From positions 128,001 through 192,000 of IMG/VR virus record IMGVR_UViG_3300045988_151351: 64,000 nt of DNA, one strand, 5' to 3'. The position numbers and the translations under genes are program-made. A model generated the notes under the pieces. It was not told the origin of the DNA, searched no databases, and was given only the letters and a program-made list of their open reading frames with translations. Below, piece after piece: positions 15,940 to 30,535 of this stretch (the stretch's first letter is position 1; the number at the start of each line of letters is the position of its first letter). This DNA comes from a virus.

Positions 15940-16100
15940 CATCAATAGGCTGCTCGGCGCGCTGGCGGGTGTGGCGCGCCGAGTTTGCGTATTATACAAA
16001 TGTCACAAAAATCTTCTGTGCTTTTTGTACAAAATTATCCCTTGACAGATTTCCCACAATGTGCTATACTATAGATACAGTAAAGGAAAGAGGTATTCAC
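15940..16100 (+). promoter_or_regulatory. composite regulatory element E1: GC-rich hairpin (CTCGGCGCGC...GCGCGCCGAG), A/T tract, then promoter TTGACAGATTTCCCACAATGTGCTATACT
   Basis: First of 7 similar elements spaced about 2 kb apart. Confidence 0.5.
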
Positions 16101-16101
16101 C

Positions 16102-16410
16102 ATGGAAGAAATCAGACGCCGCATGAACATCTTCAGCGCTATCAGCGCAGTCATTGTTGTCCTGCTCATTATCTTGCTCTGCCAGTATATTAAGGCACAC
16201 CCAGCTCAGAATGTCAATAACATCTATGCGAGAAGTGCAACCGTTTGTGAAGTCAATGGCAATGTCCAATTCTACACAGATGACGCGGGCAATGAATGGA
16301 GTACTACAGACGAAAATGTGTCCGTTGGTGACAAGGTTCTTCTGGTAATGAATACCATGGGAACATCACCCATCTGTGACGATGAAATCATCGAGGTTAG
16401 AGCACGCTAA
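16102..16410 (+). CDS. early small membrane protein, 102 aa
   Basis: Own promoter and RBS. N-terminal TM helix. Confidence 0.5.
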   Translation: MEEIRRRMNIFSAISAVIVVLLIILLCQYIKAHPAQNVNNIYARSATVCEVNGNVQFYTDDAGNEWSTTDENVSVGDKVLLVMNTMGTSPICDDEIIEVRAR

Positions 16411-16524
16411 GCAAAGCGTGCTCTTTCTGCATCTGTTAGTCTCCGCACACGATAGTGAGTTCCCGGAACTTCACCAAGCTAAAGTAGTAAAGAAAAATTC
16501 TGTGAAATATTTGCGCAAAAAGGC

Positions 16525-16553
16525 TTGACAAAGCGTTCCCGAAATGCTATAAT
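16525..16553 (+). promoter_or_regulatory. early-class promoter TTGACAAAG-N-TGCTATAAT (representative of about 30)
   Basis: Perfect -35 and extended -10, followed by the conserved leader ACAGATACAAGGTAAGGAAATGAGG. Confidence 0.6.
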
Positions 16554-16588
16554 ACAGATACAAGGTAAGGAAATGAGGTATTACACAA

Positions 16589-16788
16589 TGACTACTATCC
16601 AGGTGCTGTACTCGATTATTATTTGGAGCTTTTCTCTTTTTCTCTGTGCTACGCTTGTAATTAACATGAGAGAGTTTATCAAGACTTCTATCAGTTGGAA
16701 ATACGATTGGCCTGTTATTGTTCTTTGGGTATGCGAGTTGGCCCTGACTGTTATTCTTATCTTAGTCCCATTTATTTTCTTTATGTGA
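16589..16788 (+). CDS. early small membrane protein, about 66 aa, 2 TM
   Basis: ATG after RBS; hydrophobic. Confidence 0.45.
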
Positions 16789-16884
16789 TAGGGAATAACC
16801 CTTATCACATTAAGAAAGATAGTTCTTGACAACTATCACATTCTGTGCTATAATACAGATACAAAGTAAAGAGAGGTAATAATC

Positions 16885-17022
16885 ATGTTTGAGTTTGGTA
16901 TCCTGAACATTAACACTCAGGAAGAAAGAATTATCTTTGGATACAATGGAATTGACGCTTTCCGCAGATACAATCTTGATGCGGCTAAATGGAAAGTTCT
17001 GTATTCTGAATACGTTGATTAA
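16885..17022 (+). CDS. early micro-protein, 45 aa
   Basis: Promoter at 16826-16854 and conserved RBS. Confidence 0.35.
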   Translation: MFEFGILNINTQEERIIFGYNGIDAFRRYNLDAAKWKVLYSEYVD

Positions 17023-17039
17023 GAAAGGGATAAATAAAA

Positions 17040-17201
17040 TGGTTGGTTTGATGAAATACGAATGCGGTCTGAAATTCACTGGTTGTGTCTTTGAGGACAA
17101 AGAAACAGCTGAAAAATTTATTTATGATAATGGACTAAATCCCGAAGCTTATGAGCTTATTCCCGTCGCAGGTTATTTTAAAAATGGTGAAATAAAATAA
17201 A
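17040..17201 (+). CDS. early micro-protein, 53 aa
   Basis: RBS GAAAGGGATAAATAAAATG. Confidence 0.35.
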
Positions 17202-17269
17202 ATTAGGGCTTGACAAACCGCAATCTTCATGCTATAATTAAGACACAAAGAACAAAGGAGATAACAACA

Positions 17270-17464
17270 ATGACTGACAACTACAACACTTACTACAACA
17301 AGCTTATGGGCATGAAGAAAGCGGACATTATCCGCGAAGGTCAGACTTGGGATATTTGGGCGAACTGCCAGAGCACCGCCGCTTGGCTGATGAAACAGTC
17401 TAAGACTTGGCTGGCTGGTGTCCTTGCTGGTCGGCTGTGCCGCTTGGAAAATCGGGGCTACTAA
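17270..17464 (+). CDS. early small protein, 64 aa
   Basis: Promoter at 17208-17240. Followed by a terminator. Confidence 0.45.
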   Translation: MTDNYNTYYNKLMGMKKADIIREGQTWDIWANCQSTAAWLMKQSKTWLAGVLAGRLCRLENRGY

Positions 17465-17480
17465 ACCCCCGATTTTCCGT
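17441..17480 (+). terminator. rho-independent terminator (AAATCGGGG-loop-CCCCGATTTT)
   Basis: Hairpin plus T-run. Confidence 0.6.
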
Positions 17481-17571
17481 TGCGGCTTTGGACTTCTGAA
17501 ATAAACACTTGACAGCCAGCCATTCATGTGCTATAATAAAGGCACAAAGTTAAGAAGTGAGGTAAAATAAA

Positions 17572-17766
17572 ATGCTGTTCATCATCTCTGCTGTTTACTA
17601 CAATTATAGACCTGACGACAATAACCGCTATCGTTGCGAGACTACAGTTGTAGGTCAAGACAATGCCTATGAACTGGGACAGAAATTTATGGACGCTGAT
17701 AATGTTCTTTCAGTGGATATTATTGACGCTATGACTGGTGAGGTGATTGAAAGCTGGACAGAGTAA
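17572..17766 (+). CDS. early small protein, 64 aa
   Basis: Promoter at 17508-17545; ORF; terminator. Confidence 0.45.
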   Translation: MLFIISAVYYNYRPDDNNRYRCETTVVGQDNAYELGQKFMDADNVLSVDIIDAMTGEVIESWTE

Positions 17767-17776
17767 TAAAATACCA

Positions 17777-17815
17777 ATTCAGCGGAATGAACAAATTCCG
17801 CTGAATTTTTTTATT
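17777..17815 (+). terminator. rho-independent terminator (CAGCGGAATgaacaaATTCCGCTG + T-run)
   Basis: Hairpin plus T7. Confidence 0.75.
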
Positions 17816-17849
17816 TATTTTGTCTATTGACAAATCCAATAGAATGTGA

Positions 17850-18044
17850 TAAAATGGGCGCGCCGGCCACAATCGCCACTGGCCGGCATTTTATTATAAC
17901 ATACCGCCAGCCAATTTGTCAAGGGGAAAATCGCACAAATATTACACAAAAAATTCTCCCGAAATTTGTGCGTTTTGCCAATAGACAAACAGAATAGCAT
18001 AGTGTATAATAAAGATACAAAGTTAAGGAACGAGGTAATTCACA
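17850..18044 (+). promoter_or_regulatory. composite regulatory element E2: GC hairpin GCCGGCC..GGCCGGC, conserved box CATTTTATTATAACATACCGCCAGCCAATTTGTCAAGGGG, then promoter TAGACA-N16-TGTATAAT
   Basis: Conserved with E3 and E7. Confidence 0.5.
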
Positions 18045-18212
18045 ATGACTATGAACGCACTTGCTGAGAAATTGTCCGCATGGCTCGACCGCTATGGCTG
18101 GGATGATGAAAGCCTGAATAATTTTGCCAACATCCATGCGACTTCCTACGAAGAATACAATGCGATTTGGGAAGTTTTGGAAGAACTGAAAAAAATGCGT
18201 GATGGGGATTGA
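18045..18212 (+). CDS. early micro-protein, 55 aa
   Basis: Conserved RBS. Confidence 0.4.
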   Translation: MTMNALAEKLSAWLDRYGWDDESLNNFANIHATSYEEYNAIWEVLEELKKMRDGD

Positions 18213-18269
18213 CAAAGTCCCCATTCCATGCTATAATAAATATACAAATTAAGAAAGGAATTGAATACA

Positions 18270-18488
18270 ATGGATTTCAAGAAAATGAGCGCAGGTGCAG
18301 CATTCGGCAAAATTCTTTACACAGTTGGCAAGTGGTTCGCAACTGCCGCTTTGATCTGGTGGGGCTGGAACATTTTTGCCTGGCACTTTGATCTGCCGCA
18401 GTTCGAGTACATGGAAATCTTTGCCATGCGTATGGCTCTGACCTGTATCATGAAAATTTTCTGGCAGAGAACTGACAAAGGGGATTGA
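18270..18488 (+). CDS. early small membrane protein, about 72 aa
   Basis: Promoter at 18210-18245. Trp-rich TM. Confidence 0.45.
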   Translation: MDFKKMSAGAAFGKILYTVGKWFATAALIWWGWNIFAWHFDLPQFEYMEIFAMRMALTCIMKIFWQRTDKGD

Positions 18489-18545
18489 CAAACAATCCCC
18501 CATGTGCTATAATAAATTCAGAAATTAAGAAAGGAATTGATAATA

Positions 18546-19007
18546 ATGAAAGCAACAGGAATTATCCGCAGAATTGATGAATTGGGGCGCGTAGTTATCC
18601 CCAAGGAAATCCGCCGCACTATCCGAATCCGCGAAGGTGACCCGCTGGAGATTTTCGTTGAAGGTGGCGCAGTCATTTTCAAGAAATACCAGACAATGGG
18701 AAATCTTGAAACTCAGTGTAATGTGCTTTGTGACACATTCCAAAAAATGTCCAGTGCGTGCGCAGTCTTTGATACTGATGGTGAATTGTTCGCGTCAAAT
18801 TCACAGTTCCGCTTTGCCTTTGCCGCCAACATGCCCAAGTTGCCGAAAGATTTAATTGGTTGCCGTGAAATTCTTGAACGCAATCACATGATTTTCATGC
18901 CAATTATCGCTGATGGGGAAATACTGGGAACTCTGGCAGTTGAAACCGATAACCGCGAAATGGTTCAATTTGCGGCAAGAAATTTGGCTGAACAGTCGAA
19001 AAATTAA
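18546..19007 (+). CDS. SpoVT/AbrB-family regulator, about 153 aa: AbrB-N domain plus a C-terminal GAF-like domain
   Basis: RRIDELGRVVIPKEIRRTIRIREGD is the AbrB-N signature. Length and architecture resemble SpoVT. Own promoter at 18484-18520. Confidence 0.6.
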   Translation: MKATGIIRRIDELGRVVIPKEIRRTIRIREGDPLEIFVEGGAVIFKKYQTMGNLETQCNVLCDTFQKMSSACAVFDTDGELFASNSQFRFAFAANMPKLPKDLIGCREILERNHMIFMPIIADGEILGTLAVETDNREMVQFAARNLAEQSKN

Positions 19008-19069
19008 GTCTTGACAAACCAGCCGGTCTATGATACAATAATGATACAAAAGAAAGCGAGGTACTTACA

Positions 19070-19228
19070 ATGAAAATGGTTATCTTCACTCTGGTAATTG
19101 CTATCCTTGTCATTGACTGGCTGGTTGCTATTTTGGAATTTGCTACCGGTCACAAGAAAAGCATTGTTGATGTTATCATCCGTTCATTCCTTCTTTTTGC
19201 CGTGCCTTTTATCGTCCAGTGGTTCTAA
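19070..19228 (+). CDS. early micro-membrane protein, 52 aa
   Basis: Promoter at 19010-19045; hydrophobic. Confidence 0.4.
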   Translation: MKMVIFTLVIAILVIDWLVAILEFATGHKKSIVDVIIRSFLLFAVPFIVQWF

Positions 19229-19374
19229 CTACTGGGCGATAAAATTCACTATTGACAAAATAATAAAAATGTGATATAATAATTATACAATAAAAAAAGG
19301 AATTGATAACATGAATTTTCTATTCAATTTGCCTATTGACATTTTTGATTGCGTATGCTATAATTAAATGATAA

Positions 19375-19568
19375 GAAAATTGCAGCCGCCCGCCGACGTT
19401 TGCCAGCCCCGGTATTTCCATTATAACACCGGCCAGCCATTTTGTCAAGCGAAAAATTGAACAAAAATGAAAAAATATTTGATCCCGAATTTGTGTATTC
19501 TACCAATAGACAAAAAGAAAAACAGGGTGTATAATAAGGGTACAAAGTTAAGGAATGAGGTACTTGAA
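19375..19568 (+). promoter_or_regulatory. composite regulatory element E3 (GC-rich segment, box CCATTATAACACCGGCCAGCCATTTTGTCAAGCG, promoter TAGACA..TGTATAAT)
   Basis: Conserved with E2 and E7. Confidence 0.5.
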
Positions 19569-19748
19569 ATGAGTAAGCGTGAAATGGTCCGCATGATTAA
19601 CGACCGCACTGGTGAAATCGTTGACAAGTTTTTTGATGATTCCGCCGATGCTGATGATCTTGAATTTCTTCTGGACATGATGCAAGTCCATTATCAGCGG
19701 TGGAGCGATGGCGAAATTCTTTATGAAGAAAATGATACAAGGGCTTGA
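19569..19748 (+). CDS. early acidic micro-protein, 59 aa
   Basis: RBS AAGGAATGAGG. Confidence 0.4.
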   Translation: MSKREMVRMINDRTGEIVDKFFDDSADADDLEFLLDMMQVHYQRWSDGEILYEENDTRA

Positions 19749-19806
19749 CAAACAAGCCCCCTATGTGATATAATCAATACAGAAATTAAGGAATGAGGTA
19801 ACTACA

Positions 19807-20019
19807 ATGAAGAACTTCACTATTGACGCTTACATCAAACAGCAGTTGATTTTTGCTGAGACTATGCCTACCGATGCCGAACTGTTCGAGCACAACGCTC
19901 TTGGCGCTATCGAGTGGGATGCTTATGTAAATGGCACTAACCCCGAACTTGAGCGCCGTTGGACTGAAAACTACAAACCCGCCTTTGAAAAGATTATTCG
20001 GGGGGTTTTCCATGGATGA
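19807..20019 (+). CDS. early small protein, 70 aa
   Basis: Promoter at 19745-19780. Confidence 0.45.
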   Translation: MKNFTIDAYIKQQLIFAETMPTDAELFEHNALGAIEWDAYVNGTNPELERRWTENYKPAFEKIIRGVFHG

Positions 20020-20212
20020 TCTGAAAAAAGGGACTTGTAAGGATTTTACAGCGTGGGACTTAAACTGTCCCCGCTATGTAAAACCTGACAACAAACTGAG
20101 AAAAAAATTCGTGCGGAAATATCGCAGAAATTCAAAACTGGCTCTTGACAAACAGGTAAAAACGTGCTATAATCAAGATACAAAAACGGAAAGGAATGAA
20201 AACAATGATTAA
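20014..20212 (+). CDS. basic K/R-rich micro-protein, about 66 aa; its coding sequence overlaps the next promoter
   Basis: ATGGATGA overlap with the preceding stop. Confidence 0.25.
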
Positions 20213-20675
20213 AGAAATCGTATTCGACATGGACGGAACTATCGCTGACCTGTATGGCGTTGAGAACTGGCTGGAAATGCTGAGAACATCCGACCCGACC
20301 CCGTATGAAATCGCAGAACCCCTGATTGACATGGCAGAACTTGCCAATCTGCTTTCCCAGTGTCGTGTTATCGGGATTGAAATTTCCGTGGTAACTTGGC
20401 TGAGCAAGGTTTCCACTCCCGACTATGATAAAGCGGTGAGAAAAGCGAAAAAAGAATGGCTGAACAACCATGATTTTCCTTTTGACCATTTCCACGGAGT
20501 CAAGTATGGAACACCGAAACATCAGGTAGTCAAGCAGGAACTTCCAAAAGATGGAACAGCACTGATTTTCGATGATGACGCGCGAGTGCGGAACGCTTGG
20601 ACGCTTGGCGAAGCAATCGACCCCACAAAAGAAAATATCATTGAAATCCTGCGGAATATTTTGGAAGCGCGCTAA
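20205..20675 (+). CDS. HAD-superfamily 5'(3')-deoxyribonucleotidase-like hydrolase, about 156 aa
   Basis: Motif I FDMDGTIADL (DxDGT). Size and layout match the phage NT5C-type nucleotidase family. Confidence 0.55.
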   Translation: MIKEIVFDMDGTIADLYGVENWLEMLRTSDPTPYEIAEPLIDMAELANLLSQCRVIGIEISVVTWLSKVSTPDYDKAVRKAKKEWLNNHDFPFDHFHGVKYGTPKHQVVKQELPKDGTALIFDDDARVRNAWTLGEAIDPTKENIIEILRNILEAR

Positions 20676-20788
20676 GCGCTTCCAAAGAAAGGAAATAATA
20701 AAATGAATGACGAACAGCTTGACATTTTGCTTGAAGAAGCAACAGACATTAAAATTTTGATTGCCTTGGGCTGAAAGGATGGGTAAAA

Positions 20789-21079
20789 ATGGAAACAAAG
20801 TTTATTTGGGTAGTTAATTTTGGCGATAATGATTTTGATGATTTGAATTGCGCATTTGACAATTTCAAAACTGCAAAAGAAGCAGTACAGACAATTTTTG
20901 GCAAGGTTTCCGCAGTAAACCCTGCTTGGCAGAATTTTAAGCTGGAAGATGAAGACACTGAAAATGAATGGGCAGTCTATGCATTTGACTATGTTGATGA
21001 AGACGCCCACCTTTTGGTAAATCCTCACATTGACATTGTCGTAGCTCCAATACCTTACAATTCTCTTCCTATTGATTGA
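20789..21079 (+). CDS. early small protein, 96 aa
   Basis: Intact ORF followed by a terminator. Confidence 0.45.
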   Translation: METKFIWVVNFGDNDFDDLNCAFDNFKTAKEAVQTIFGKVSAVNPAWQNFKLEDEDTENEWAVYAFDYVDEDAHLLVNPHIDIVVAPIPYNSLPID

Positions 21080-21120
21080 AAATTTTGGGAATCCAGATTT
21101 TGGATTCCCAATTTTTTTTC
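21079..21120 (+). terminator. rho-independent terminator (GGGAATCCAGATTTTGGATTCCC + T8)
   Basis: Perfect hairpin plus T-run. Confidence 0.8.
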
Positions 21121-21139
21121 GATTCATTTTTTGGAAATA

Positions 21140-21595
21140 GTTGTAAAATGACAGCCGCGCGGTCACGATTGTGTGGCCGCGCCATTTTGTCAAGAGGGAA
21201 TACTCACTAATTTTTTGAGCGGATTTTTGTGCATCTTGCCAATAGACAGAAATCCTGAAATGTGGTATACTCTATAATGTCAAGGGGAGAGAATGAAAAA
21301 AACTTTATCTCCCTCGTGGGAGATTAGGTGTCAGTCAGTCCCACCCACTCGAAAAAAAATGTAAAAAACCCCTTGACAAACCCCACGGAATGTGGTACAA
21401 TAAAGACGTCAAGAGGGAACAGCGATTAAAAAGTGCTTGGTATCATTAGCCGGGCTACACAACTTCCGCGGTTCGTGTGTAAAAAAAATAAAATTCCCTC
21501 TTGACAAACAGCTCCTGATGTGTTATAATCAATACAGAAATTAAGGATAGGGGAAACGATGGTAAGCCCCATCCAAAAGAAAGGAATTACCAAAA
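21140..21595 (+). promoter_or_regulatory. composite element E4 plus a cluster of three tandem promoters, each followed by a short hairpin transcript whose 3' arm overlaps the next -35
   Basis: Promoters at about 21247-21275, 21372-21400 and 21483-21512. Hairpins GTCAAGGGGAG../..CCCCTTGAC and CAAGAGGGAA../..TTCCCTCTTG. Confidence 0.5.
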
Positions 21596-22252
21596 ATGCC
21601 CAAAAATATCTACTGTACGCTGGACACTGAGACAGTCGGTGGCAGTTCTAACCCGACCGGAATGTATAACGCGGGTGCTGTCATTCACGACAAGGATGGT
21701 AACATTTTGGCAACAACTTCCATCCTTATCATGGAACATTATGACAGCATCAACAAAGACGATTATGCTAAGAAGCATTTTCCGATCTATGAAGCTCGTT
21801 TGACAAGTGGCACAATTTCCGCGGTAGCTACCGAAGCCGAAGCTGTATCCATCGTGCGCAACCTCTGTCGGTTCTATGGTGTAAAGTATGTTATGGCATA
21901 CAATAGCTGTTTCGATTTCATTAAGACACCTTTTGCCGCGCTTCTAGATGAATTTGAGTTTATCGACCTTTATTTGATGGCTTTACAGACCATCACGCAC
22001 CAGAAAGGCTTTGACAAATTCTGCCATGAAAATAATTTCGTTGCGCGAAGTGGCAGGTCTTGCGCGACGGGTGTTGAAGCGGTCTATGCCTACATCACCA
22101 GAAACCCCGACTTTGAAGAAGAACACACCGCACTTTCTGACGCACTGAATGAAATGGCAATTTTTGTTAAGTGCTATTCGCTCCATAAGCGCTTTACCAA
22201 AAACTGCCACCAGTGGAATTGCCACGAAAATAAAATGTTCCCCAAGTGGTAA
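21596..22252 (+). CDS. DEDDh 3'-5' exonuclease (DnaQ/RNase T-like), 218 aa
   Basis: Exo I CTLDTETVG, Exo II YNSCFDF and Exo III HTALSDALNEMAIF motifs. Confidence 0.6.
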   Translation: MPKNIYCTLDTETVGGSSNPTGMYNAGAVIHDKDGNILATTSILIMEHYDSINKDDYAKKHFPIYEARLTSGTISAVATEAEAVSIVRNLCRFYGVKYVMAYNSCFDFIKTPFAALLDEFEFIDLYLMALQTITHQKGFDKFCHENNFVARSGRSCATGVEAVYAYITRNPDFEEEHTALSDALNEMAIFVKCYSLHKRFTKNCHQWNCHENKMFPKW

Positions 22253-22320
22253 AAACCACTTGACAAACCCAATCAAATGTGATATAATCAATACAGAAAT
22301 TAAGAAAGGAATTGAATACC

Positions 22321-22824: not shown

Positions 22825-22834
22825 GAAAATTAGT

Positions 22835-23774: not shown

Positions 23775-23780
23775 CAAAAG

Positions 23781-23818
23781 TTCCTCCCAGAAAATGGGAG
23801 GAACTTTTTTACCCAAAT
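23781..23818 (+). terminator. rho-independent terminator (TTCCTCCCAGAAAATGGGAGGAA + T-run)
   Basis: Hairpin plus T6. Confidence 0.75.
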
Positions 23819-23824
23819 TATTTG

Positions 23825-23991: not shown

Positions 23992-24165
23992 ATGAATATT
24001 GAAGTAAATACCGAGCATCTAACTGAGTGCATTGAAAGTTGGGTCGAGACATTTGATGATTGTGCTTGTTGTCCTCTGATGTTCGACTGCCAAGAGGATG
24101 AAGATATCCGAGGCATTGACTGTATTGAATGCAGTGAAAAAATTATTGATTGGTTAAAGGCTTGA
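23992..24165 (+). CDS. Cys-rich micro-protein, 57 aa (CACC..C..C..C)
   Basis: RBS GGGAGGAAAC. Confidence 0.4.
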   Translation: MNIEVNTEHLTECIESWVETFDDCACCPLMFDCQEDEDIRGIDCIECSEKIIDWLKA

Positions 24166-24219
24166 CAAGATAACCCTATTGTGATACAATAGGATTATCA
24201 AAAGAAAGGAATTGATACA

Positions 24220-24354
24220 ATGGATTTAGCTATTATTATTTTAGGTGCTCTCTATCTCTGCGGGGTTAAAGTTGGCACAGCACTTGCAATCTGTGCTATT
24301 ATTGAAGGTCTTTTCATTATTATCAGTGCAATTATCAGAAAATTAAATGAATAA
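24220..24354 (+). CDS. micro-membrane protein, 44 aa
   Basis: Promoter at 24160-24197; hydrophobic. Confidence 0.4.
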   Translation: MDLAIIILGALYLCGVKVGTALAICAIIEGLFIIISAIIRKLNE

Positions 24355-24416
24355 GGGCTTGACAAACAAGCCCTATTGTGCTATAATTGATTTATCAAAG
24401 GAAAGGAATTGATACC

Positions 24417-24749
24417 ATGAATAAAAAAAATAATGAGAATTTAAAAAGAGTATTAAATCTCTTGGACGACCTTATTTCTGATGAAGTAGAAGAACGAACC
24501 GCAGAACTTGAAAAGGAAGTTTCTCATTTTAAATGTTCAAGTGCCCGATATAGGGATATAATTAAATTCCTTGTTAGAGAATCTAAACTTGATATTCCTG
24601 CTAAAACTGCCGAAGCCTTGGAAGAATTTAAGAATGCAAAAGAGTGTGATAGTAGAAATGGTTATTCTACTTATACAAGCTATACCAATCGAAAAGGTTA
24701 TGTTTATGAACAATATGAAATGATTAAAAAAATTTGTAATAGGGCTTGA
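24417..24749 (+). CDS. early small protein, about 110 aa
   Basis: Promoter at 24358-24395. Confidence 0.45.
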   Translation: MNKKNNENLKRVLNLLDDLISDEVEERTAELEKEVSHFKCSSARYRDIIKFLVRESKLDIPAKTAEALEEFKNAKECDSRNGYSTYTSYTNRKGYVYEQYEMIKKICNRA

Positions 24750-24802
24750 CAAACAAGCCCTATTGTGCTATAATAAAGACACAAAGAGAGGAGATGTAAT
24801 AA

Positions 24803-25009
24803 ATGAAACACAATAAATGGTTTGTGGCTTGTCTTGGTTGTCTGATGGTTAGCGTAGTTCTCGGCGGTTTGGGAATGATGTTGGGCGTTCTTGCCTGTGT
24901 GGCTTGTGCGGGCGGATGTTTCGTTAAGTGGCTTTTCGAAGAAGATAAATACCAGCGCGCAGAACACCAAAAATATTTGGAAAGTTTGAAAAAAGGGCTT
25001 GACAAATAA
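24803..25009 (+). CDS. small membrane protein, 68 aa
   Basis: Promoter at 24746-24783. Confidence 0.45.
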   Translation: MKHNKWFVACLGCLMVSVVLGGLGMMLGVLACVACAGGCFVKWLFEEDKYQRAEHQKYLESLKKGLDK

Positions 25010-25059
25010 CTACTTTGATGTTATAATAAAGATACAATAAAGGAAAGGAATTGATACCA

Positions 25060-25239
25060 TGAAACATTTCCATTGTCCGGTAAATGGTTGGGATTGCCCC
25101 TATTTCAAAAATGAAACGATAATCAATGGTCAGAAAGAAACCTGCATTTGTAGTCTGGAAAATCCGATGGATGACTGCGATGATTTTTACAGCATGTGGG
25201 GTGATTGCGAACCTGATGATTATACAGATGATAATTAAG
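25060..25239 (+). CDS. Cys-rich acidic micro-protein, 59 aa
   Basis: Promoter at 24996-25033. Confidence 0.4.
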
Positions 25240-25271
25240 GGGAAATTTCCCCTAGGAAAGGAATTGATACC

Positions 25272-25559
25272 ATGTTAGATAAAAATACGGAAGAAATGCT
25301 GAAAGGCATGACGGACAGTGAAATCGCTACATTGATTGGTCTTGCTTATAGAGAAAAGCAAAACAGAGATGAAGCAAAAAAAACAAAATACATGAACGCA
25401 ATTAACAAGGCTATTCAGGATTATCTGGATAATGTTGGAGATTTAACATTCCATGTTGAGTATGAAGATGAAGATGGTCAGGACGCGGAAACTGACATCA
25501 CCGTAGATAATACAAATCCGCCTGCTGGTGGTAATGGAGTTATTTATATTAAGGAGTGA
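25272..25559 (+). CDS. early small protein, 95 aa
   Basis: RBS only, no own promoter; co-transcribed. Confidence 0.45.
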   Translation: MLDKNTEEMLKGMTDSEIATLIGLAYREKQNRDEAKKTKYMNAINKAIQDYLDNVGDLTFHVEYEDEDGQDAETDITVDNTNPPAGGNGVIYIKE

Positions 25560-25636
25560 AAAAATAGCACAAGGGGCTTGACAAAGTAAGCCTCTTGTGC
25601 TATAATTGATTTATCAAAAGAAAGGAATTGATAAAA

Positions 25637-25876
25637 ATGACTCTCGGTATGATTAAAAATGTAATCGGCATTGTAAAAGGTTCGTTAATGTTTTATGATG
25701 GAAATGGTGTTGAAGTAATAAATGAAAATACCTGTGGTCGCTATCTCAAAGATCGCAAAGGCCGCATGACCTTGAATGGAGACCTTCTGGACACAAGTGA
25801 AGAATGGATGCTGGGATTACCTGTAACTGGTTTGAAAGCCAAAAATAATACCCTTATCATTTACGTTGATGGCTGA
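25637..25876 (+). CDS. early small protein, about 79 aa
   Basis: Promoter at 25576-25613. Followed by terminator 25877-25912. Confidence 0.45.
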   Translation: MTLGMIKNVIGIVKGSLMFYDGNGVEVINENTCGRYLKDRKGRMTLNGDLLDTSEEWMLGLPVTGLKAKNNTLIIYVDG

Positions 25877-25912
25877 AAATAAAATCCAGAGGGCTATGCT
25901 CTCTGGATTTTT
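25877..25912 (+). terminator. rho-independent terminator (AAATCCAGAG..CTCTGGATTTTTT)
   Basis: Hairpin plus T-run. Confidence 0.75.
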
Positions 25913-25914
25913 TA

Positions 25915-26088
25915 AAATCTATTAATTTTTCAGTCTCGCGCCCACGGTCCAAGCGCGAGGATTTTTAGATTTTAAACACATTACACAATTTTTTCGGGCA
26001 AAATTTGTGTAAAATAACAGTTGACATTTTTCCCGATACCTGTTATACTATAATTGTTCCAAGAGAGAACCAGTAAGGAGAATGAACA
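25915..26088 (+). promoter_or_regulatory. composite regulatory element E6 (hairpin CTCGCGC..GCGCGAG, promoter TTGACATTTTTCCCGATACCTGTTATACT)
   Basis: Same architecture. Confidence 0.45.
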
Positions 26089-26304
26089 ATGAAAAGATAT
26101 AGAATTACAGATGATGTTGTCGCTGATTTGTTGAACTTCTATTGCGAGGGTAAGCCTGCCGTTTGGAATTGGTTTTTTGGATGGCGCGGCGGACATTGGG
26201 ATACAAAAGGGAATCTAGTTTATTGCGATTACATTGTTTCTGATAAAATTCTGAATCAAGCAATCACATTAGCAAAAAGATTTTCCGATCGGCTTGACAA
26301 ATAA
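26089..26304 (+). CDS. early small protein, 71 aa
   Basis: RBS AAGGAGAATG. Confidence 0.45.
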   Translation: MKRYRITDDVVADLLNFYCEGKPAVWNWFFGWRGGHWDTKGNLVYCDYIVSDKILNQAITLAKRFSDRLDK

Positions 26305-26354
26305 ATAAAAATATGTTATAATAATTATACAAATTAAGAAAGGAATTGATAACA

Positions 26355-26540
26355 ATGACAATGTATAAACGGGAAGTAAAATATAAGTGGCTTTGGTGGA
26401 ATGGACGTGGTAGTTATGTTCTTTCTGATGAAACTGAATGGATGAGTGAAGAAGAAGCAAAAGAAAAGAACATCAAAACCTATGATACTGGTTTACAATG
26501 TTGTAGAGAATATGAAAGATTTATTCCGATAGAAAATTAA
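26355..26540 (+). CDS. early small protein, about 61 aa
   Basis: Promoter at 26293-26330. Confidence 0.4.
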   Translation: MTMYKREVKYKWLWWNGRGSYVLSDETEWMSEEEAKEKNIKTYDTGLQCCREYERFIPIEN

Positions 26541-26559
26541 AAAGAAAGGAATTGATACC

Positions 26560-26970
26560 ATGACTGAAATTAAGACCTATAAATGTGATTTCTGCGGGCA
26601 GGTGTTCGACGATGAAGCAGAGTGTATTCGTCATGAATGGAAATGCAGATATGAGGATCTGCGTAGAACAGAAAATTGCGAACCGCTGAAGCTGTTCGAC
26701 CTTGAAGACAAGGAAATTGAGGGATTTAATTATCCTAAATGTGATGAAATTGGTGCGATGGAAATTCATTCCTACGCTTGGGCACAATTCATCAATGATT
26801 ATTTTGATGAAATGGGTTATGAAGTTCCCATTAGAATCGTAGACGGAGAGGTTGAACGCTATGGTCTGTGGTATTATGACCCTGAATATCGCTATGGCGA
26901 GTGGCGATCTTATGAAGAAGTGCTTGAAGATATTCAGAAAATTGGAAAGAAATTTAATCAAGGGGCTTGA
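26560..26970 (+). CDS. early protein with an N-terminal C2H2/zinc-ribbon-like motif, 136 aa
   Basis: CDFCGQVFDDEAECIRHEWKC. Confidence 0.45.
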   Translation: MTEIKTYKCDFCGQVFDDEAECIRHEWKCRYEDLRRTENCEPLKLFDLEDKEIEGFNYPKCDEIGAMEIHSYAWAQFINDYFDEMGYEVPIRIVDGEVERYGLWYYDPEYRYGEWRSYEEVLEDIQKIGKKFNQGA

Positions 26971-27024
26971 CAAGCCCCTTGACCTGTGATATAATTGATT
27001 TATCAAAAGAAAGGAATTGATACA

Positions 27025-27300
27025 ATGAATAAACAGGTTATTTTCATGGACAACGAGGGAACTGTTCAGGCAGGCATCTGGAATCAGGACAGGGATGAAA
27101 TTATTTGCGGTTGTTGTGGCGCAACAATCGAATCGGGCGATTTTGTTCTGCTTCACATTTATGACGAATGGCTGAATATCACCGATGAAATCTGCGGAGA
27201 TGATGGAGATATTCTTCATGAGATTGAAGAAAAGGTTGACCGTCTGACCACTTCTGAAATTGAAGCTATTCTTGATGGAAAGAAGGAATTTAACGTATGA
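27025..27300 (+). CDS. early small protein, about 91 aa, with CGCCG..C..C
   Basis: Promoter at 26967-27005. Confidence 0.4.
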   Translation: MNKQVIFMDNEGTVQAGIWNQDRDEIICGCCGATIESGDFVLLHIYDEWLNITDEICGDDGDILHEIEEKVDRLTTSEIEAILDGKKEFNV

Positions 27301-27605
27301 AATTTCTTATTAAGGTTATCGCTAAGTGGTTCAAAGACAGAAATTGCGCGTTTGCTATTTATGGCGCGGATGGCTCATGCATTGAAAGTGCAAATACTGT
27401 ACCGGAAAAGAATTTTTTCCCACCGAAGACAAATCAAATACGGAAAAATGGTGATGATTGGTATTCATTTCCAATCAATGCCAACGGTGAATATTGCGGT
27501 TGTGTCTGCTGGCTTGAAGATACCAGCGAAGAAGCATGGATAGAATTTTACGATGTAATTAACATCTGCCAAATTCTGGAAACCGCGTGCGAAGTTGAGG
27601 AATAA
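27297..27605 (+). CDS. early small protein, 102 aa
   Basis: ATGA overlap with the preceding gene. Terminator at 27590-27625. Confidence 0.45.
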   Translation: MKFLIKVIAKWFKDRNCAFAIYGADGSCIESANTVPEKNFFPPKTNQIRKNGDDWYSFPINANGEYCGCVCWLEDTSEEAWIEFYDVINICQILETACEVEE

Positions 27606-27639
27606 ATTTCCTCAACTTTTTTCGCCTTTTTAATTGGGA

Positions 27640-28059
27640 ATTTTTGGGCGCGGCGCCCACGTATGTAAGGCGCCGAATTTCCATTATACCACCCCGCCAG
27701 CAATTTGTCAAGAGAAAAGTTATACAAAATAATCTTTTTATTTTATCCCGTTTTCGTCATTTTGCCAATAGACTTTTCAAGGGGTATCTGCTATAATACA
27801 TAATGTCAGGAGGGAATGGAGAGTTCCCAAGCGGTTAAAAAAACTTTTGGGAATTGAAAATTTCCTCTTGACAAAGCCCACACGATGTGGTATAATAAGG
27901 GTGTCAATGAGGGGCGGCTAAGTCCTGCAGGCTGAAAAAGATTTTAGAATTTTTGGGAAAAAATTCGCCAAACCTCTTGACAAGCCCCACAAAGTGTGGT
28001 ATAATCTAAATGTAATTAAGTGAAGGACACACTTAAAAAACCAGAAAGGAATTGATACT
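27640..28059 (+). promoter_or_regulatory. composite element E7 plus a triple tandem promoter-hairpin cluster, paralogous to 21140-21595 and 22835-23008
   Basis: Box CCATTATACCACCCCGCCAGCAATTTGTCAAGAG. Promoters at about 27775-27805, 27880-27910 and 27975-28005. Confidence 0.5.
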
Positions 28060-28440
28060 ATGGCTAAGACTACTTCCAAGCTGACCAAGCGCGACTACTT
28101 CAACATTCTCCGTGAAGCGTATCCGCAGACCGCGGACAACTATGACGCAGTTATCGGTTTCATCGACCATGAGCTGGAACTGCTTTCCAAGAAGAACGCG
28201 GCTGACAAGAAGCCGACTGCCACGCAGGTGGCGAACGACGGTTTCAAGACCTCGATTAAGGCGGTGATGTCCGCAGAACCGACCCGTCTGTTCACTATCA
28301 CGGAACTGATTAAGACTGTTCCGGAGATTGCCGACCTGACTAACCAGCGTGTTTCTGCTATCGTCCGGCAGATGGTAACTGATGGCACGCTCGACCGCGT
28401 TGAGGAAAAGCGGAAAGCCTATTTCCGCATTCACCAGTAA
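28060..28440 (+). CDS. family-X protein, 126 aa; paralog of 23009..23371
   Basis: See 23009. Confidence 0.5.
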   Translation: MAKTTSKLTKRDYFNILREAYPQTADNYDAVIGFIDHELELLSKKNAADKKPTATQVANDGFKTSIKAVMSAEPTRLFTITELIKTVPEIADLTNQRVSAIVRQMVTDGTLDRVEEKRKAYFRIHQ

Positions 28441-28492
28441 TTGCCAATCGGGGCGGAGCAATCCGCCCCACCCAGAAGAAAGGTGGAATTAA

Positions 28493-28897
28493 ATGGCATT
28501 AAAGGAAAAAGACAAGCAAGCGTGGATTGACAAAAATATGAAACTCATGGGCTGGACGCAGGAAGAAGCGGAAAGTGTGTGGGAAGCCGACCGCGCTATC
28601 GACAAAGGCGAACGTGTTGATTTTGACTTGTCACCAGAACAGGAAAAAGAAGCCAAAAAATATATGAACGCGGGAACGCGCAAAGTGCCGACAAATTACA
28701 AATTTGACCAGCGCAAGCGTAAAGAAAACCCGACCAAAGCCGGAATTATCGCAGAATTAGCAACTTTTTTGGCTGAAAACAGCGAAAATGCGTGCGAAAA
28801 CGTGGAAATTACAAACAAAGAGCGCATGATTGCGTTCAAAGTTGGTGAAAATTGCTACGAATTGACGCTCACGCAGAAAAGAAAGCCAAAAAGTTAA
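28493..28897 (+). CDS. family-Y protein, 134 aa; paralog of 23415..23774
   Basis: See 23415. Confidence 0.45.
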   Translation: MALKEKDKQAWIDKNMKLMGWTQEEAESVWEADRAIDKGERVDFDLSPEQEKEAKKYMNAGTRKVPTNYKFDQRKRKENPTKAGIIAELATFLAENSENACENVEITNKERMIAFKVGENCYELTLTQKRKPKS

Positions 28898-28928
28898 GAA
28901 AAAGGGCGAGAAATCGCCCTTTTTCTAA
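28898..28928 (+). terminator. rho-independent terminator (AAAAAGGGCGAGAAATCGCCCTTTTT)
   Basis: Hairpin plus T-run. Confidence 0.75.
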
Positions 28929-29035
28929 GCAAAAACTGCGGAAAAGTTAGGCTTGACAACGACTTTTTTGTATGGTATAATGTCTATACAGTTAAGGGAG
29001 CGGACAACCCAACCAACCGCAGAAAGGTAAAGCGT

Positions 29036-29683
29036 ATGTTTGAATATTTCTCCAAGGAAATCGACCAGATCGAAAGCGAAGATTTGCGAATGTTCGTTAA
29101 GTTCTATCTTGACGAAAAAGTTCCGTCCTATTTCTGGAAAATCGGCGCTTCAAGTTCTGGAAAATTTCATCCTGTTTTTTCTCAGGGTGAAGGCGGTCTA
29201 GTTCGTCATACCAAAGCCGTTTGTGCGTTCTGTGAAGAACTTTTGAGAATGTCTCAATGGGCTTACATGAAAGACGAATACAAAGACCTCGCGCGTGTCG
29301 CTTGTATTTGCCACGATACCGCAAAATACGGTTTAGCAGATTTTGACAAGGGAGAATATCCCAACCATGCCGCGAATGCCGCAAAATTGGTAGATTCTGC
29401 TTGGCGCGAATACTTTGATGAACCTGCTCCGTTTTTGCTCACGCAAGCCATTAAGTCCCACATGGGGCAATGGAGCACCGACCGCGAAGACAGACCTTTT
29501 ACAAATATTGACAGGCTTGTCCATCTTGCGGATTACATCGCTTCCAGAAACTTCATCGACATTCCTGAAATTACCAGCGACTACAATTCCACATTTTCTA
29601 ACGAAGATGACGCCGAACCGGAAGATATTGACAGCGATGAAGGCTTCGACCCTTACTCCGGCTGTTTCACCTATGACTGTTAA
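29036..29683 (+). CDS. HD-domain metal-dependent phosphohydrolase, 215 aa
   Basis: H..H...CHDTAKYG...HLADYIAS (HD motif). Promoter at 28953-28990. Confidence 0.55.
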   Translation: MFEYFSKEIDQIESEDLRMFVKFYLDEKVPSYFWKIGASSSGKFHPVFSQGEGGLVRHTKAVCAFCEELLRMSQWAYMKDEYKDLARVACICHDTAKYGLADFDKGEYPNHAANAAKLVDSAWREYFDEPAPFLLTQAIKSHMGQWSTDREDRPFTNIDRLVHLADYIASRNFIDIPEITSDYNSTFSNEDDAEPEDIDSDEGFDPYSGCFTYDC

Positions 29684-29715
29684 AAAAGAGGGCATTAGCC
29701 CTCTTTTTTTTGTTC
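29683..29715 (+). terminator. rho-independent terminator (AAAAAAGAGGGCATTAGCCCTCTTTTTTTT)
   Basis: Hairpin plus T8. Confidence 0.8.
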
Positions 29716-30086
29716 ATTTTGCCTATTGACAAATGCGGCCTGGGGTGGTATAATATCTATAGGGGATAGTTCATCGGGGCGCTGACATAGTCAAGCCCCG
29801 AATTCCCGATCTTTTATCCCATATGGAAAATTTTTGCTCAATCCAGCGGCCTCCATATGCGACCTGGTTCTCCCGAAAGTGATGCCCCCGCAGGGCGCCG
29901 ATCGGTACTATATCATATGCCCGGCATTTGACAATATTAAAAAAATTTGTTATAATATTAAAAAAAAGCATTTTTAAAGCGCGGCCCATTTAGATAATCC
30001 GCCCATTTGACATTTATAAAAAAAAATGATATAATATATTTAGAAAGTGAGAGATCACTTTACTATTAGATAAAGAGGTAACATAT
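29715..30086 (+). promoter_or_regulatory. multi-promoter region marking the transition between the two promoter families: TTGACAAATGCGGCCTGGGGTGGTATAAT, then two AT-rich TTGACA..TATAAT promoters
   Basis: Direct reading. GC-rich structured segment at 29760-29900. Confidence 0.4.
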
Positions 30087-30464
30087 ATGTTTACTAAGGA
30101 AGATATTATTGCTCGTCTTGCTAAGGGTGAGGACGCTCAGTCGATCGCAGATGAAATGGCTAAGACTCTGAATGAGGCAGTCCAGGAGACCAAGGATCAG
30201 GACAATAAGACTAATCTGCGCGCAGCTATTAATGAGAAGTCAACTGATCTTATGAATCTGCTGCTGGAGTATTTTGATGTCGATGAAACTTGTACTACCG
30301 ATGAAATGGCCAGCCTGACTGATCAGCTCCTTGATACTATTGAAGCCGTTGTGCCTCTGATTGAGGTCATTGAGAAGTATGATGATAAGAGTGCTTCTAC
30401 GCGCACAACTGCTAAGACTTCGGATAAGGTAATTTCGGACTTTTTGAAGGTATTCGTAGATTAA
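30087..30464 (+). CDS. acidic helical protein, 125 aa
   Basis: Intact ORF. Terminator at 30536-30575. Confidence 0.45.
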   Translation: MFTKEDIIARLAKGEDAQSIADEMAKTLNEAVQETKDQDNKTNLRAAINEKSTDLMNLLLEYFDVDETCTTDEMASLTDQLLDTIEAVVPLIEVIEKYDDKSASTRTTAKTSDKVISDFLKVFVD

Positions 30465-30535
30465 AACGGACACTTCTTCGGGTGGGACAATTTTCATCCT
30501 AAGAATTGGAAATCTGAATAGAAATCGAGATATTA

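Follow-up and report, generated by a model that had tools for sequence, protein, structure and literature searches.

Organization of the gene block

The sequence analysed here, termed the window, is a 64,000 nt stretch of IMG/VR virus record IMGVR_UViG_3300045988_151351 (positions 128,001 to 192,000 of that record), which derives from a TAG-recoded (genetic code 15) phage of the Caudoviricetes, an uncultured gut phage related to phAss-1, as judged by in-frame TAG codons, a tRNA(CUA) and capsid relatedness. Between about 15.94 and 30.5 kb of the window lies a block of small genes in which most genes are preceded by a promoter of their own. On the + strand, 34–35 open reading frames (ORFs) were counted, encoding proteins of 44–218 amino acids (aa), with a median of 85 aa and 20 under 100 aa; this agrees with the approximately 35 small genes of the original prediction.

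The whole window was scanned on both strands for TTGACA-N16-18-TATAAT, allowing at most one mismatch in total. The + strand contains 40 matches, 35 of them within 16000–30900, and the − strand five, three of them in the block. Against the 35 observed, 200 dinucleotide-preserving shuffles give an expectation for the block of 0.28 on average, with a maximum of 2, and the excess of promoter motifs is thus real and statistically overwhelming. A separate consensus scan returned the same sites, 28 of which have 12 out of 12 hexamer matches, with TG before the −10 nearly everywhere and a spacer of 17 nt in nearly all block promoters. Alignment of 29 of these, referred to as class-I promoters, gives a consensus of an A-rich upstream tract, cTTGACAAa, a 17-nt spacer, and TgTGnTATAAT. 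The upstream tract is 77 % AT at −20 to −5 from the −35 and contains a run of four or more A in 22 of the 29, while the extended −10 TG is present in 27 and TGTG in 17. A TRTG '−16 region' is typical of sigma-A promoters in Bacillus and other Gram-positive bacteria. The recurrence of the motif at least 30 times, as originally proposed, applies to the hexamer pair (35 times) and not to the exact nine-mer TTGACAAAC, which is found about 10 times only.

An own promoter was identified for 27 of the 34–35 genes, the distance from the end of the −10 to the ATG being 28–66 nt, and 28–34 nt for 22 genes. From the promoter layout, the other seven or eight genes are predicted to be co-transcribed with their upstream neighbour, and about 10 promoters precede structured non-coding sequence, not a gene. 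One promoter per gene is therefore correct for the 27 and has to be qualified for the remainder. The stereotyped leaders do recur: GAAAGGAATTGAWA has 17 copies in the window, 14 of them inside the block, compared with an expectation of 0.3 over the entire window, and a second leader type, TAAGRAAnGAGGTA, has six to eight occurrences. The common leader AGAAAGGAATTGATA, at 14 sites from 18253 to 28057, matches the complement of the 3′ end of a Bacillus-type 16S rRNA, which we take to be AGAAAGGAGGTGATC, at 12 of 15 positions; such pairing would be an extended but interrupted Shine–Dalgarno (SD) interaction.

The block (16000–30500) is richer in GC than its surroundings, as had been noted, with 40.9 % compared with 32.1 % upstream and 33.7 % downstream; the approximately 45 % against 30 % given originally is too wide a contrast, 45 % being reached in two sub-blocks only. 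GC per cassette, a promoter with its leader and gene or genes, spans 0.30 to 0.53, as expected if cassettes have different histories. The cassettes are separated at intervals by composite elements, designated E elements, which are located at about 15941, 17776, 19336, 21085, 23776, 27603, and 29682 (the last at 29682–29754). The features of the block are as follows, in window coordinates.

15941–16070, + strand: E16, left boundary; GC-rich hairpin CTCGGCGCGC..GCGCGCCGAG (−24.6 kcal/mol), U-rich tail, P16042 (TTGACA-17-TATACT)
16042–16429, + strand: P16042 cassette; leader A, gene 16102–16410 (102 aa, N-terminal transmembrane (TM) segment), terminator hairpin 16400–16429
16525–16788, + strand: P16525 cassette; gene 16588–16788 (66 aa, two TM-like segments)
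16826–17200, + strand: P16826 cassette; −35 in hairpin GATAGTT/AACTATC, genes 16885–17022 (45 aa) and 17039–17200 (53 aa, promoterless)
17210–17478, + strand: P17210 cassette; gene 17270–17464 (64 aa), terminator-like hairpin 17450–17478
17509–17766, + strand: P17509 cassette; gene 17572–17766 (64 aa), a different gene in its place in relative L004
17776–18010, both strands: E17 composite; bidirectional terminator 17776–17815, P17827 (+), GC hairpin 17862–17887, convergent − strand promoter (−35 at 17922), inverted repeat CGCACAAAT..ATTTGTGCG, weaker P17982 (+, TAGACA-17-TATAAT)
17982–18212, + strand: P17982 cassette; gene 18045–18212 (55 aa, acidic), TGA stop within the next −35 (TTGACA)
18209–18488, + strand: P18209 cassette; −35 in GGGGA..TCCCC hairpin (−19.5 kcal/mol), gene 18270–18488 (72 aa), stop within the next −35
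18485–19007, + strand: P18485 cassette; −35 in GGGGATTG/CAATCCCC hairpin, gene 18546–19007 (153 aa, SpoVT/AbrB-family DNA-binding protein)
19011–19228, + strand: P19011 cassette; gene 19070–19228 (52 aa, two TM-like segments)
19252–19535, both strands: P19252 and E19; P19252 has leader B and an 18-codon ORF only
19336–19535, both strands: E19 composite; P19336 (+), GC-rich segment, − strand promoter (−35 at 19448), P19507 (+, TAGACA)
19507–19748, + strand: P19507 cassette; gene 19569–19748 (59 aa, acidic), stop within the next −35
19745–20212, + strand: P19745 cassette; 18-nt spacer, hairpin over −35, gene 19807–20019 (70 aa), overlapping ORF 20013–20212 (66 aa; a called gene in the relatives L092 and L093)
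20145–21079, + strand: P20145 cassette; genes 20205–20675 (156 aa, HAD-like, weak) and 20789–21079 (96 aa, absent from L004)
21085–21271, both strands: E21; terminator 21085–21120, GC hairpin 21157–21182 plus CAUUUUGUC, − strand −35 remnant, P21243 (+, TAGACA-17-TATACT)
21279–21505, + strand: two non-coding units, 21279–21377 and 21408–21505; 5′ UGUCAAGRGG pairs with CCYCUUGACA including the next −35 (P21373, P21501)
21501–22252, + strand: P21501 cassette; 66-nt leader, gene 21596–22252 (218 aa, phrog_20187)
22260–22824, + strand: P22260 cassette; gene 22321–22824 (167 aa), absent from L004, which has a chimeric P22260/P22837 promoter at the junction
22837–23774, + strand: duplicated module, copy 1; P22837, hairpin RNA 22872–22908, then P22929 with 51-nt leader
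23009–23371 and 23415–23774, + strand: copy 1 genes behind P22929 (120 aa, winged-helix; 119 aa)
23776–23960, both strands: E23; terminator 23776–23812, GC hairpin, − strand −35 remnant, P23932 (+, TTGACT-17-TATACT)
23932–24165, + strand: P23932 cassette; gene 23992–24165 (57 aa, seven Cys, acidic), stop within the next −35
24162–24354, + strand: P24162 cassette; gene 24220–24354 (44 aa, TM-like)
24359–24749, + strand: P24359 cassette; hairpin GGGCTTG/CAAGCCC over −35, gene 24417–24749 (110 aa)
24746–25009, + strand: P24746 cassette; 11-bp hairpin over −35, gene 24803–25009 (68 aa, TM-like, five Cys)
24999–25559, + strand: P24999 cassette; genes 25059–25238 (59 aa, six Cys, acidic) and 25272–25559 (95 aa, own leader B, promoterless)
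25578–25876, + strand: P25578 cassette; 17-bp palindrome from upstream of −35 to −10 (−27 kcal/mol), gene 25637–25876 (79 aa)
26021–26304, + strand: P26021 cassette; TTGACA-17-TATACT, E-type context ATTTGTGTA upstream, gene 26089–26304 (71 aa)
26294–26970, + strand: P26294 cassette; genes 26355–26540 (61 aa) and 26560–26970 (136 aa, Cys-rich), stop within the next −35
26967–27605, + strand: P26967 cassette; hairpin GGGGCTT/AAGCCCC over −35, genes 27025–27300 (91 aa) and 27297–27605 (102 aa)
27603–27797, both strands: E27; terminator, GC hairpin 27651–27675, − strand promoter (−35 at 27711), P27769 (+, TAGACT-17-TATAAT)
27805–27981, + strand: two non-coding units, 27805–27872 and 27903–27981; RNA 5′ end pairs with the next −35 box
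27977–28897, + strand: duplicated module, copy 2; P27977, 54-nt leader, genes 28060–28440 (126 aa) and 28493–28897 (134 aa)
28953–29718, + strand: P28953 cassette; gene 29036–29683 (215 aa, HD-domain), terminator 29682–29718
29726–30571, + strand: right edge; P29726 in E-type context with non-coding sequence after it, then class-II promoters P29928 and P30007, gene 30087–30464 (125 aa), terminator 30535–30571

Conservation of promoters and genes in relatives

Four close relatives were available for comparison, their shared genes being 85–100 % identical: L004, an IMG/VR contig of 125.8 kb with shared genes 94–100 % identical in protein, and L092, L093, and L094, which span the whole block with 81–95 % nucleotide identity in shared segments. 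Between the window and L004, pooled synonymous divergence (pS) is 0.112 and non-synonymous divergence (pN) 0.012. The pN/pS ratio of 0.11 overall, and of 0.10 for proteins of less than 100 aa, indicates that the mini-ORFs are real genes under purifying selection. In the 20 promoters shared with L004 there are no substitutions in 120 positions of the −35 and one in 120 of the −10. Divergence is 3.3 % in the spacers, 2.6 % in the leaders, and 2.5 % in the upstream tracts of the same promoters, compared with 0.11 at synonymous sites. Constraint is therefore strongest in the hexamers, and change in the cassette as a whole is far slower than at synonymous sites. Together with the consensus hexamers, 17-nt spacer, TRTG or extended −10, A-rich tract, and fixed distance to SD and ATG, this bears out the proposal that the motifs are sigma-A-like.

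The same architecture is present in more distant relatives and is conserved across a large group of phages not yet cultured. In L005, whose HD protein is 60 % identical, there are 21 class-I promoters in 11.5 kb along with E elements, and within the locus GC is highest in the block. The same scan of phAss-1 found a terminal block from approximately 127.7 to 136 kb that wraps around to 0.5 kb and has convergent-promoter E elements and variable spacers containing GC. A motif search of IMG/VR returned 82 stretches; in 44 loci the density is five or more consensus promoters per 5 kb, with a maximum of 28 in 12 kb, and 22 dense loci contain 191 distinct promoter-proximal ORFs with a median of 91 aa.

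A motif of this kind might not be a promoter at all; it could instead be an array to which a phage protein binds, or an element for replication or packaging with a chance resemblance to the sigma-A consensus. The −35 boxes often lie in palindromes, inverted copies of CCTCTTGACA occur, and the GC hairpins of E elements, flanked by convergent promoters, could prime R-loops. However, conservation extends to the two hexamers, the TG, and the 17-nt spacing but not to the spacer sequence, the strand bias is strict (35 against 3), and the motif has a fixed position before the SD and ATG, making it scarcely credible that these are anything other than promoters.

Junctions, hairpins, and E elements

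Adjacent cassettes are tightly joined. Six ORFs end in a TGA that belongs to the TTGACA of the next promoter, and the stops of a further two lie a few bases beyond. Folding of 50 nt around each of 38 promoters identified significant hairpins at 10 (−7.7 to −27 kcal/mol, z < −2), most being GGGG/CCCC-type stems whose 5′ arm or loop contains the −35. At eight of the 10, no more than 20 nt separate the −35 from the end of the upstream ORF. The other 28 promoters have no significant hairpin; in addition, four long hairpins have the next −35 as their 3′ arm. The stems are kept in the relatives, with one clean compensatory change (GGGCTTG/CAAGCCC to GGGGTTG/CAACCCC at P24359 in L004), two changes to G·U, and one outer-stem swap at P26967, of which the changes to G·U favour an RNA-level role on + strand transcripts. 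Candidacy of the −35 stem-loops as canonical intrinsic terminators is not supported, since no U-tract follows them on the + strand; for this reason they are regarded as attenuators or 3′-end protectors, which probably act on the upstream transcript.

Canonical terminators, with a stem and T-run, are found at about eight places, mostly in E elements, and most internal junctions have none. Because terminators are mainly at the seven E elements, the block can be read as about seven co-directional operons with two to eight internal promoters each. E elements consist of a terminator, an 80–90 % GC hairpin with a U-rich tail, the inverted repeat CGCACAAAT-N28-ATTTGTGCG, and a weaker + strand promoter with TAGACA or TTGACT as the −35 and often TATACT as the −10, these E-element sequences being further from consensus than those of the internal promoters. 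In three copies an intact consensus promoter on the − strand is aimed into the GC hairpin, and in E17 and E19 it is faced by a + strand promoter. E elements are conserved in L005 and phAss-1. Possible roles include that of insulator, regulated gate, source of a tiny antisense RNA, or R-loop origin.

It might be argued that only the E-element promoters fire and that the internal motifs are silent or occluded by read-through and stem-loops, leaving about seven ordinary operons. The union of terminators, promoters, and operator-like inverted repeats in E elements, their conservation in three phage lineages, and the rarity of terminators at internal junctions are all consistent with this. Yet the internal hexamers are nearer to consensus than those of the E elements and are invariant at a synonymous divergence of 0.11, and the internal promoters have a fixed spacing to SD and ATG, so that silence of the internal promoters is very unlikely.

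Some promoters are followed by short non-coding units. In both copies of the duplicated module there are two or three tandem promoters ahead of the genes. The predicted short non-coding transcripts start with UGUCAAGRGG, the exact complement of CCYCUUGACA (flank plus −35) at the next promoter. This pairing closes hairpins of 68–99 nt (z = −2.6 to −7.6), the closing stems of which covary. Conservation across 22 related loci is limited to the terminal inverted repeat and an A/T hairpin, with unrelated interiors, and the short 'GUCAAGAGGG' units were therefore rejected as a conserved small RNA family and are not a conventional one. A small-ORF reading of the units was likewise rejected, as the SD is too near the ATG and there is no conservation. 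At gathering and permissive thresholds, no Rfam family was found in the block.

Gain, loss, and replacement of cassettes

The window and L004 are collinear and differ by whole cassettes. Absent from L004 are the genes at 20789–21079 and 22321–22824 and the four-gene stretch 25637–26970 (window 25636–26959 missing), while window 17469–17806 and 24414–25037 are replaced. Just after P24162, L004 has an extra 750 nt that constitute two further cassettes, each with a promoter and leader. Across the comparisons of the window with L004, L092, L093, and L094 there are at least 12 cassette indels or replacements. In L094, cassettes at 4328–5227 for a nucleoside 2-deoxyribosyltransferase and an energy-coupling factor (ECF) transporter S component have no counterpart in the window or in L093, which shows that metabolic genes also travel as cassettes.

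At two junctions the crossover is resolved. At the 22321 junction the L004 promoter is chimeric: its −35 and spacer come from P22260, its −10 and the sequence downstream come from P22837, and the switch is located within TGTGATA. In the four-gene deletion, the crossover is inside approximately 50 nt of identical promoter and leader common to P25578 and P26967. For counting of breakpoints, a cassette was taken as −20 from the −35 through to the start codon, which covers 22 % of the block. Over the four comparisons, 40 of 74 breakpoint ends are in cassettes (2.5-fold enriched, binomial p about 1e-9), although the counts are not fully independent, L092, L093, and L094 sharing events; after removal of shared events, about 21 of 36 are in cassettes.

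These data can be set against an explanation in which the array serves expression only, the motifs being kept for maximal independent early expression and genes turning over by illegitimate recombination and selection. Purifying selection on the hexamers alone would then explain their conservation, and roughly 45 % of the breakpoint ends fall at gene ends or in E elements and not in cassettes. The chimeric junction promoter, the crossover inside an identical promoter and leader, and the enrichment of breakpoints in cassettes, however, speak against this explanation. Furthermore, a cassette divergence of 2.5–3.3 %, far under the 11 % at synonymous sites, fits homogenisation. A role in expression without one in recombination is therefore unlikely.

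Genetic code, codon usage, and a second promoter class

The stops of 34 block genes are TAA in 19, TGA in 15, and TAG in none, and there is no in-frame TAG. With TAG neither as sense nor as stop, the block genes read alike under the standard code and code 15. TAG trinucleotides occur at 5.2 per kb in the block against 12.6–14.8 per kb elsewhere. In the late ORFs there are 36 in-frame TAG codons in ten ORFs, with three to nine each in the portal, terminase, and others. The GC content of third codon positions is 0.455 in the block, 0.211 in late ORFs, and 0.229 in middle ORFs. Codon preference is in some cases shifted widely between the block and elsewhere, as in Leu CTG (0.32 vs 0.02), Leu TTA (0.08 vs 0.59), and Gln CAG (0.76 vs 0.35).

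Such differences in composition would also be expected of a foreign island, acquired recently from another phage or from the host, in which composition reflects origin and not function. The block GC of 41 % against 32–34 %, the sharply different codon usage, and the range of cassette GC, which suggests mixed origins of single cassettes, agree with that. Nevertheless, the same architecture, always the GC-richest, is found in L005 and phAss-1, core genes are common across the lineage, and the phage's own code is obeyed throughout, there being no TAG stop in the 34 genes. Recent acquisition of the block as a unit is consequently regarded as very improbable.

A second class of promoter was identified. 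Class-II promoters have TTGATT or TTGACA, an invariant A/T spacer ttttataaaaaatatga, TATAAT, and then atatatgtaagataaagaaag. About 20 copies, mostly with TTGATT, are at 33–58 kb, where they precede replication-region genes and tRNAs. The sites are:

13050, − strand: class-II site
13129, 29928, 30007, 30862, and 33325–58366, + strand: class-II sites

In phAss-1 there are about 30 class-II copies with the invariant A/T spacer TTGACAtAAAAAAATTTTTgTGnTATAATATATATAGAAAGTGAG over the region of replication, nucleotide metabolism, and tRNAs. Class-II promoters may need a phage factor. The suppressor tRNA(CUA) is at 58653–58727, and the class-II promoter P58366 is directly before tRNA-Val and the suppressor. 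The TAG-free block, the codon split, and the placing of the suppressor behind a class-II promoter together support, but do not prove, a temporal order from the class-I block to class-II genes and tRNAs and then to TAG-rich late genes.

The encoded proteins

The small membrane, Cys-rich, and acidic peptides that had been predicted are present: five block proteins have hydrophobic TM-like segments, about eight have at least five Cys, and 17 have a pI below 5. For 20 of the 24 small proteins neither Pfam nor PHROG gave a match, and these are therefore ORFans. Among 30 proteins scanned, the only PHROG matches were to AbrB-like and HAD-like families, to phrog_14464, which is a family of small membrane proteins, and to families of unknown function.

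The 153 aa protein of 18546–19007 is a homologue of SpoVT/AbrB (PDB 2w1t, Bacillus subtilis SpoVT, E = 1e-22). A second AbrB-like ORF is just upstream of the block at 15435–15809 and is open only with TAG read-through. The two AbrB/SpoVT-type proteins could be phage mimics of a transition-state or sporulation regulator of the Bacillota. Other assignments are a HAD-like phosphatase (20205–20675, 156 aa, weak match), an HD-domain protein (29036–29683, 215 aa), a Cys-rich protein with a weak DUF7128 match (26560–26970, 136 aa), and a member of phrog_20187, a family of unknown function (21596–22252, 218 aa). PDB sequence searches with 23009–23371, 28493–28897, 21596–22252, and 29036–29683 gave nothing usable, and because of this our impression that 21596–22252 may encode a DEDD exonuclease is an unconfirmed lead.

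One gene pair is present twice, at 23009–23774 and 28060–28897, the paralogues being 61 % and 39 % identical. It is part of a duplicated module of about 2.2 kb (21085–23774 and 27603–28897), made up of an E element, tandem promoters, and the gene pair, which is duplicated in L005 too. The first protein of the pair (23009–23371; its paralogue, 28060–28440, is the one with 61 % identity) has a C-terminal winged helix in its AlphaFold model (pLDDT 87), with MarR, ArsR, and MecI-type regulators as the top structural matches, all with weak E-values. The second protein, of 119–134 aa, has an N-terminal helix–turn–helix-like segment. In a metagenomic protein collection there are 3810 clusters of homologues of the winged-helix protein, so that this group of phages is very widespread.

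The phage and its putative host

The major capsid protein (3221–4327, − strand) has 50 % identity to that of phAss-1 and 40 % to those of 140-kb Enterococcus phages, and the nearest capsid relatives are phAss-1 and phages of Enterococcus, Bacillus, and Staphylococcus. At NCBI, phAss-1 is placed in the 'Caudoviricetes code 15 clade'. It was described by Babkin et al., with Eubacteriales (Clostridia) as predicted hosts (PMC10607447). Compared by megablast with 50,697 deposited phages, the block had no match. In a search of bacterial genomes the winged-helix protein 23009–23371 was found in contigs of metagenome-assembled genomes (MAGs) only, mostly binned as Clostridia, Eubacteriales, Acutalibacteraceae, and Oscillospiraceae, which points weakly to a host in the Clostridia. 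With the capsid relatives, the SpoVT/AbrB homologue in the block, and the MAG binning of related contigs, the Bacillota host suggested by the original prediction is plausible. The genome is probably roughly 125–135 kb in size and the host probably a member of the Bacillota, within the Clostridia.

The late module on the − strand at 0.6–13 kb (599–13000) encodes structural and packaging functions, its long ORFs existing only when TAG is read as sense. It includes:

6913–8610, − strand: portal, open only with TAG as sense
8980–10740, − strand: large terminase, open only with TAG as sense

The window has an array of 25 tRNA genes at 48611–58727. ARAGORN reported a tRNA with a four-base anticodon at 50465–50536 and a tRNA-Phe with anticodon AAA at 48611, and an Rfam tRNA match at 56187–56332 is 146 nt long and could hold an insertion or intron. 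Within the tRNA region is a full-length match to the RAGATH-33 RNA family at 55754–55866 (137.9 bits; gathering score 120.4). Two large proteins, 42324–43952 and 46807–48255, appear by eye to be paralogues, with a shared ..SxHPxD..W.SC.. core and C-terminal CxxC-rich repeats; the former may run on through four TAG codons to 44225.

Proposed function of the block

Taken together, it is likely that the block is an immediate-early ORFan or host-takeover region, driven by sigma-A and built of portable, recombining cassettes. Unmodified host sigma-A RNA polymerase would transcribe approximately 30 portable expression cassettes in series, each having an A-rich tract, TTGACAA, a 17-nt spacer (often with a G/C stem-loop), TRTGnTATAAT, a 25–30-nt SD leader, and a small ORF. 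At tight junctions, the −35 stem-loop would attenuate the upstream transcript or protect its 3′ end. Because TAG is avoided and the codons are GC-richer, the genes would be translatable on arrival, before the phage tRNAs and TAG suppressor are made. The repeated promoter and leader sequences would also be short homology patches for recombination, through which single cassettes could be gained, lost, or replaced without disturbing their neighbours.

Several observations weigh against this. We infer the host-takeover function of the block proteins, promoter use, and early timing from the sequence, and in the Pfam and PHROG scans no block protein was tied to host shut-off or anti-defence. A clear stem-loop is present at only about a quarter of promoters and none has a proper U-tract, making a terminator role doubtful. 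The phage tRNAs do not correspond significantly to late-enriched codons as exact cognates (p = 0.75); those tRNAs of four- and six-fold boxes that have U34 or A34 match codons commoner in late genes (TTA, CTA, CAA, CGT, CCA, TCA, GTA), as a trend only. The breakpoint ends outside cassettes, and the shared events among the four comparisons, also count here.

A bolder version is that the block is a dedicated 'code-neutral' platform for gene exchange, in which the E elements are regulated gates and the closing hairpins an undescribed, transcription-coupled layer of control. TAG-free cassettes, each bringing a host-consensus promoter and leader and recombining at these common sequences, would then be able to move between phages of different codes and be expressed at once in any Bacillota host. 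Each gate would combine tandem terminators, face-to-face promoters with the GC hairpin lying between them, inverted repeats that resemble operators, and a weaker promoter. This is offered tentatively and is rather doubtful.

The proposed sigma-A-driven cassette array provides a concrete temporal model for a stop-codon-recoded phage, with TAG-free early genes that have consensus promoters and GC-richer codons, class-II replication genes and tRNAs including the suppressor, and TAG-rich late genes. It also supplies about 30 natural candidate cassettes of a strong sigma-A promoter and ribosome-binding site, and about 35 candidate host-targeting small proteins, for organisms in which tools are poor.

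Comparison with known systems

The architecture of the block was previously thought unusual, which overstates the case, as there are close precedents in the promoter(early)–stem-loop (PeSL) arrays of T4-type phages (PMC2839356, PMC4122927) and SPO1's module for host takeover (PMC6873191). PeSL cassettes are known in RB49/phi1, PST, and nt-1 (PMC2839356, PMC4122927), T4-like myoviruses with Gram-negative hosts, and their activity as promoters and terminators has been demonstrated. In RB49/phi1 they comprise consensus sigma-70 promoters preceded by AT-rich sequence, stem-loops of polyG/polyC that overlap the boxes or lie between them, and an SD with ATG; they are found before ORFans in hyperplastic regions, at about 50 per genome and locally eight in about 5 kb, and crossovers between elements give rise to indels and mini-circles (PMC2839356). 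The block cassettes resemble these in the host-consensus promoter with its AT-rich tract, the SD and ATG at the 3′ end, the ORFan-rich plastic region with crossovers inside the elements, and a similar density (up to about 12 per 5 kb, compared with eight), and as in the T4-type phages single cassettes appear to be exchangeable. G-run/C-run stem-loops over or next to the promoter boxes are clear in 10 of 38 block promoters. As the phage lineage and host phylum are unrelated, the block cassettes are an analogue of PeSLs and not a homologue. They differ further in forming one contiguous, co-directional array with E elements between and stops inside the next −35, and in being TAG-free inside a code-15 genome.

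SPO1's module for host takeover, comprising genes 37–60, is described by Stewart (1998), as summarised in PMC6873191. The two share a block of about 12–14 kb in a phage of the Bacillota, with roughly 26–35 small early genes, strong promoters and ribosome-binding sites, and products that are mostly without homologues and include small membrane, acidic, and zinc-finger-like proteins. The block has about 30 promoters for about 35 genes, whereas the SPO1 module reportedly has about 12 promoters for 24–26 genes, arranged as operons. The SPO1 module is situated in the terminal redundancy of that phage; the window does not extend to its genome ends, and the related contigs are assemblies from metagenomes. 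No homology to SPO1 gp37–gp60 was seen, as assessed indirectly from the PHROG scans of 30 block proteins and from megablast. SPO1 also uses the standard code and a later switch of sigma factors (gp28, gp33/34), while here the temporal switch appears to be made by a second sigma-A-like promoter class together with TAG suppression.

The code-15 phAss-1 and proposed Phassvirus group (PMC10607447) are of the same lineage, with TAG in late genes, a suppressor tRNA(CUA), and predicted Clostridia hosts. The words 'promoter' and 'early' are both absent from that paper (PMC10607447), and within the literature searched the two promoter classes, TAG-free early block, and cassette turnover are described first here for this group.

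Integrons share with the block a series of small-ORF cassettes, hairpin-forming boundaries, and gain and loss at the level of the cassette, and Arbiol et al. drew the same analogy. Integron cassettes are, however, promoterless, relying on a common Pc, and depend on IntI and attC, in contrast with the 27 of about 35 block genes that have their own promoter, and the two resolved block junctions look like homologous crossovers in 7–50 nt of identity. No integrase was identified in the window, although no search was aimed at integrases.

What sets the block apart from these precedents is its promoter density, the stops in the −35, the E elements, and the TAG-free, GC-richer dialect. The idea that regulatory cassettes are also recombination linkers, developed for PeSLs, would thereby be extended to unrelated and abundant uncultured gut phages of putative Clostridia hosts, which suggests convergent evolution of one solution for the shuffling of early genes.

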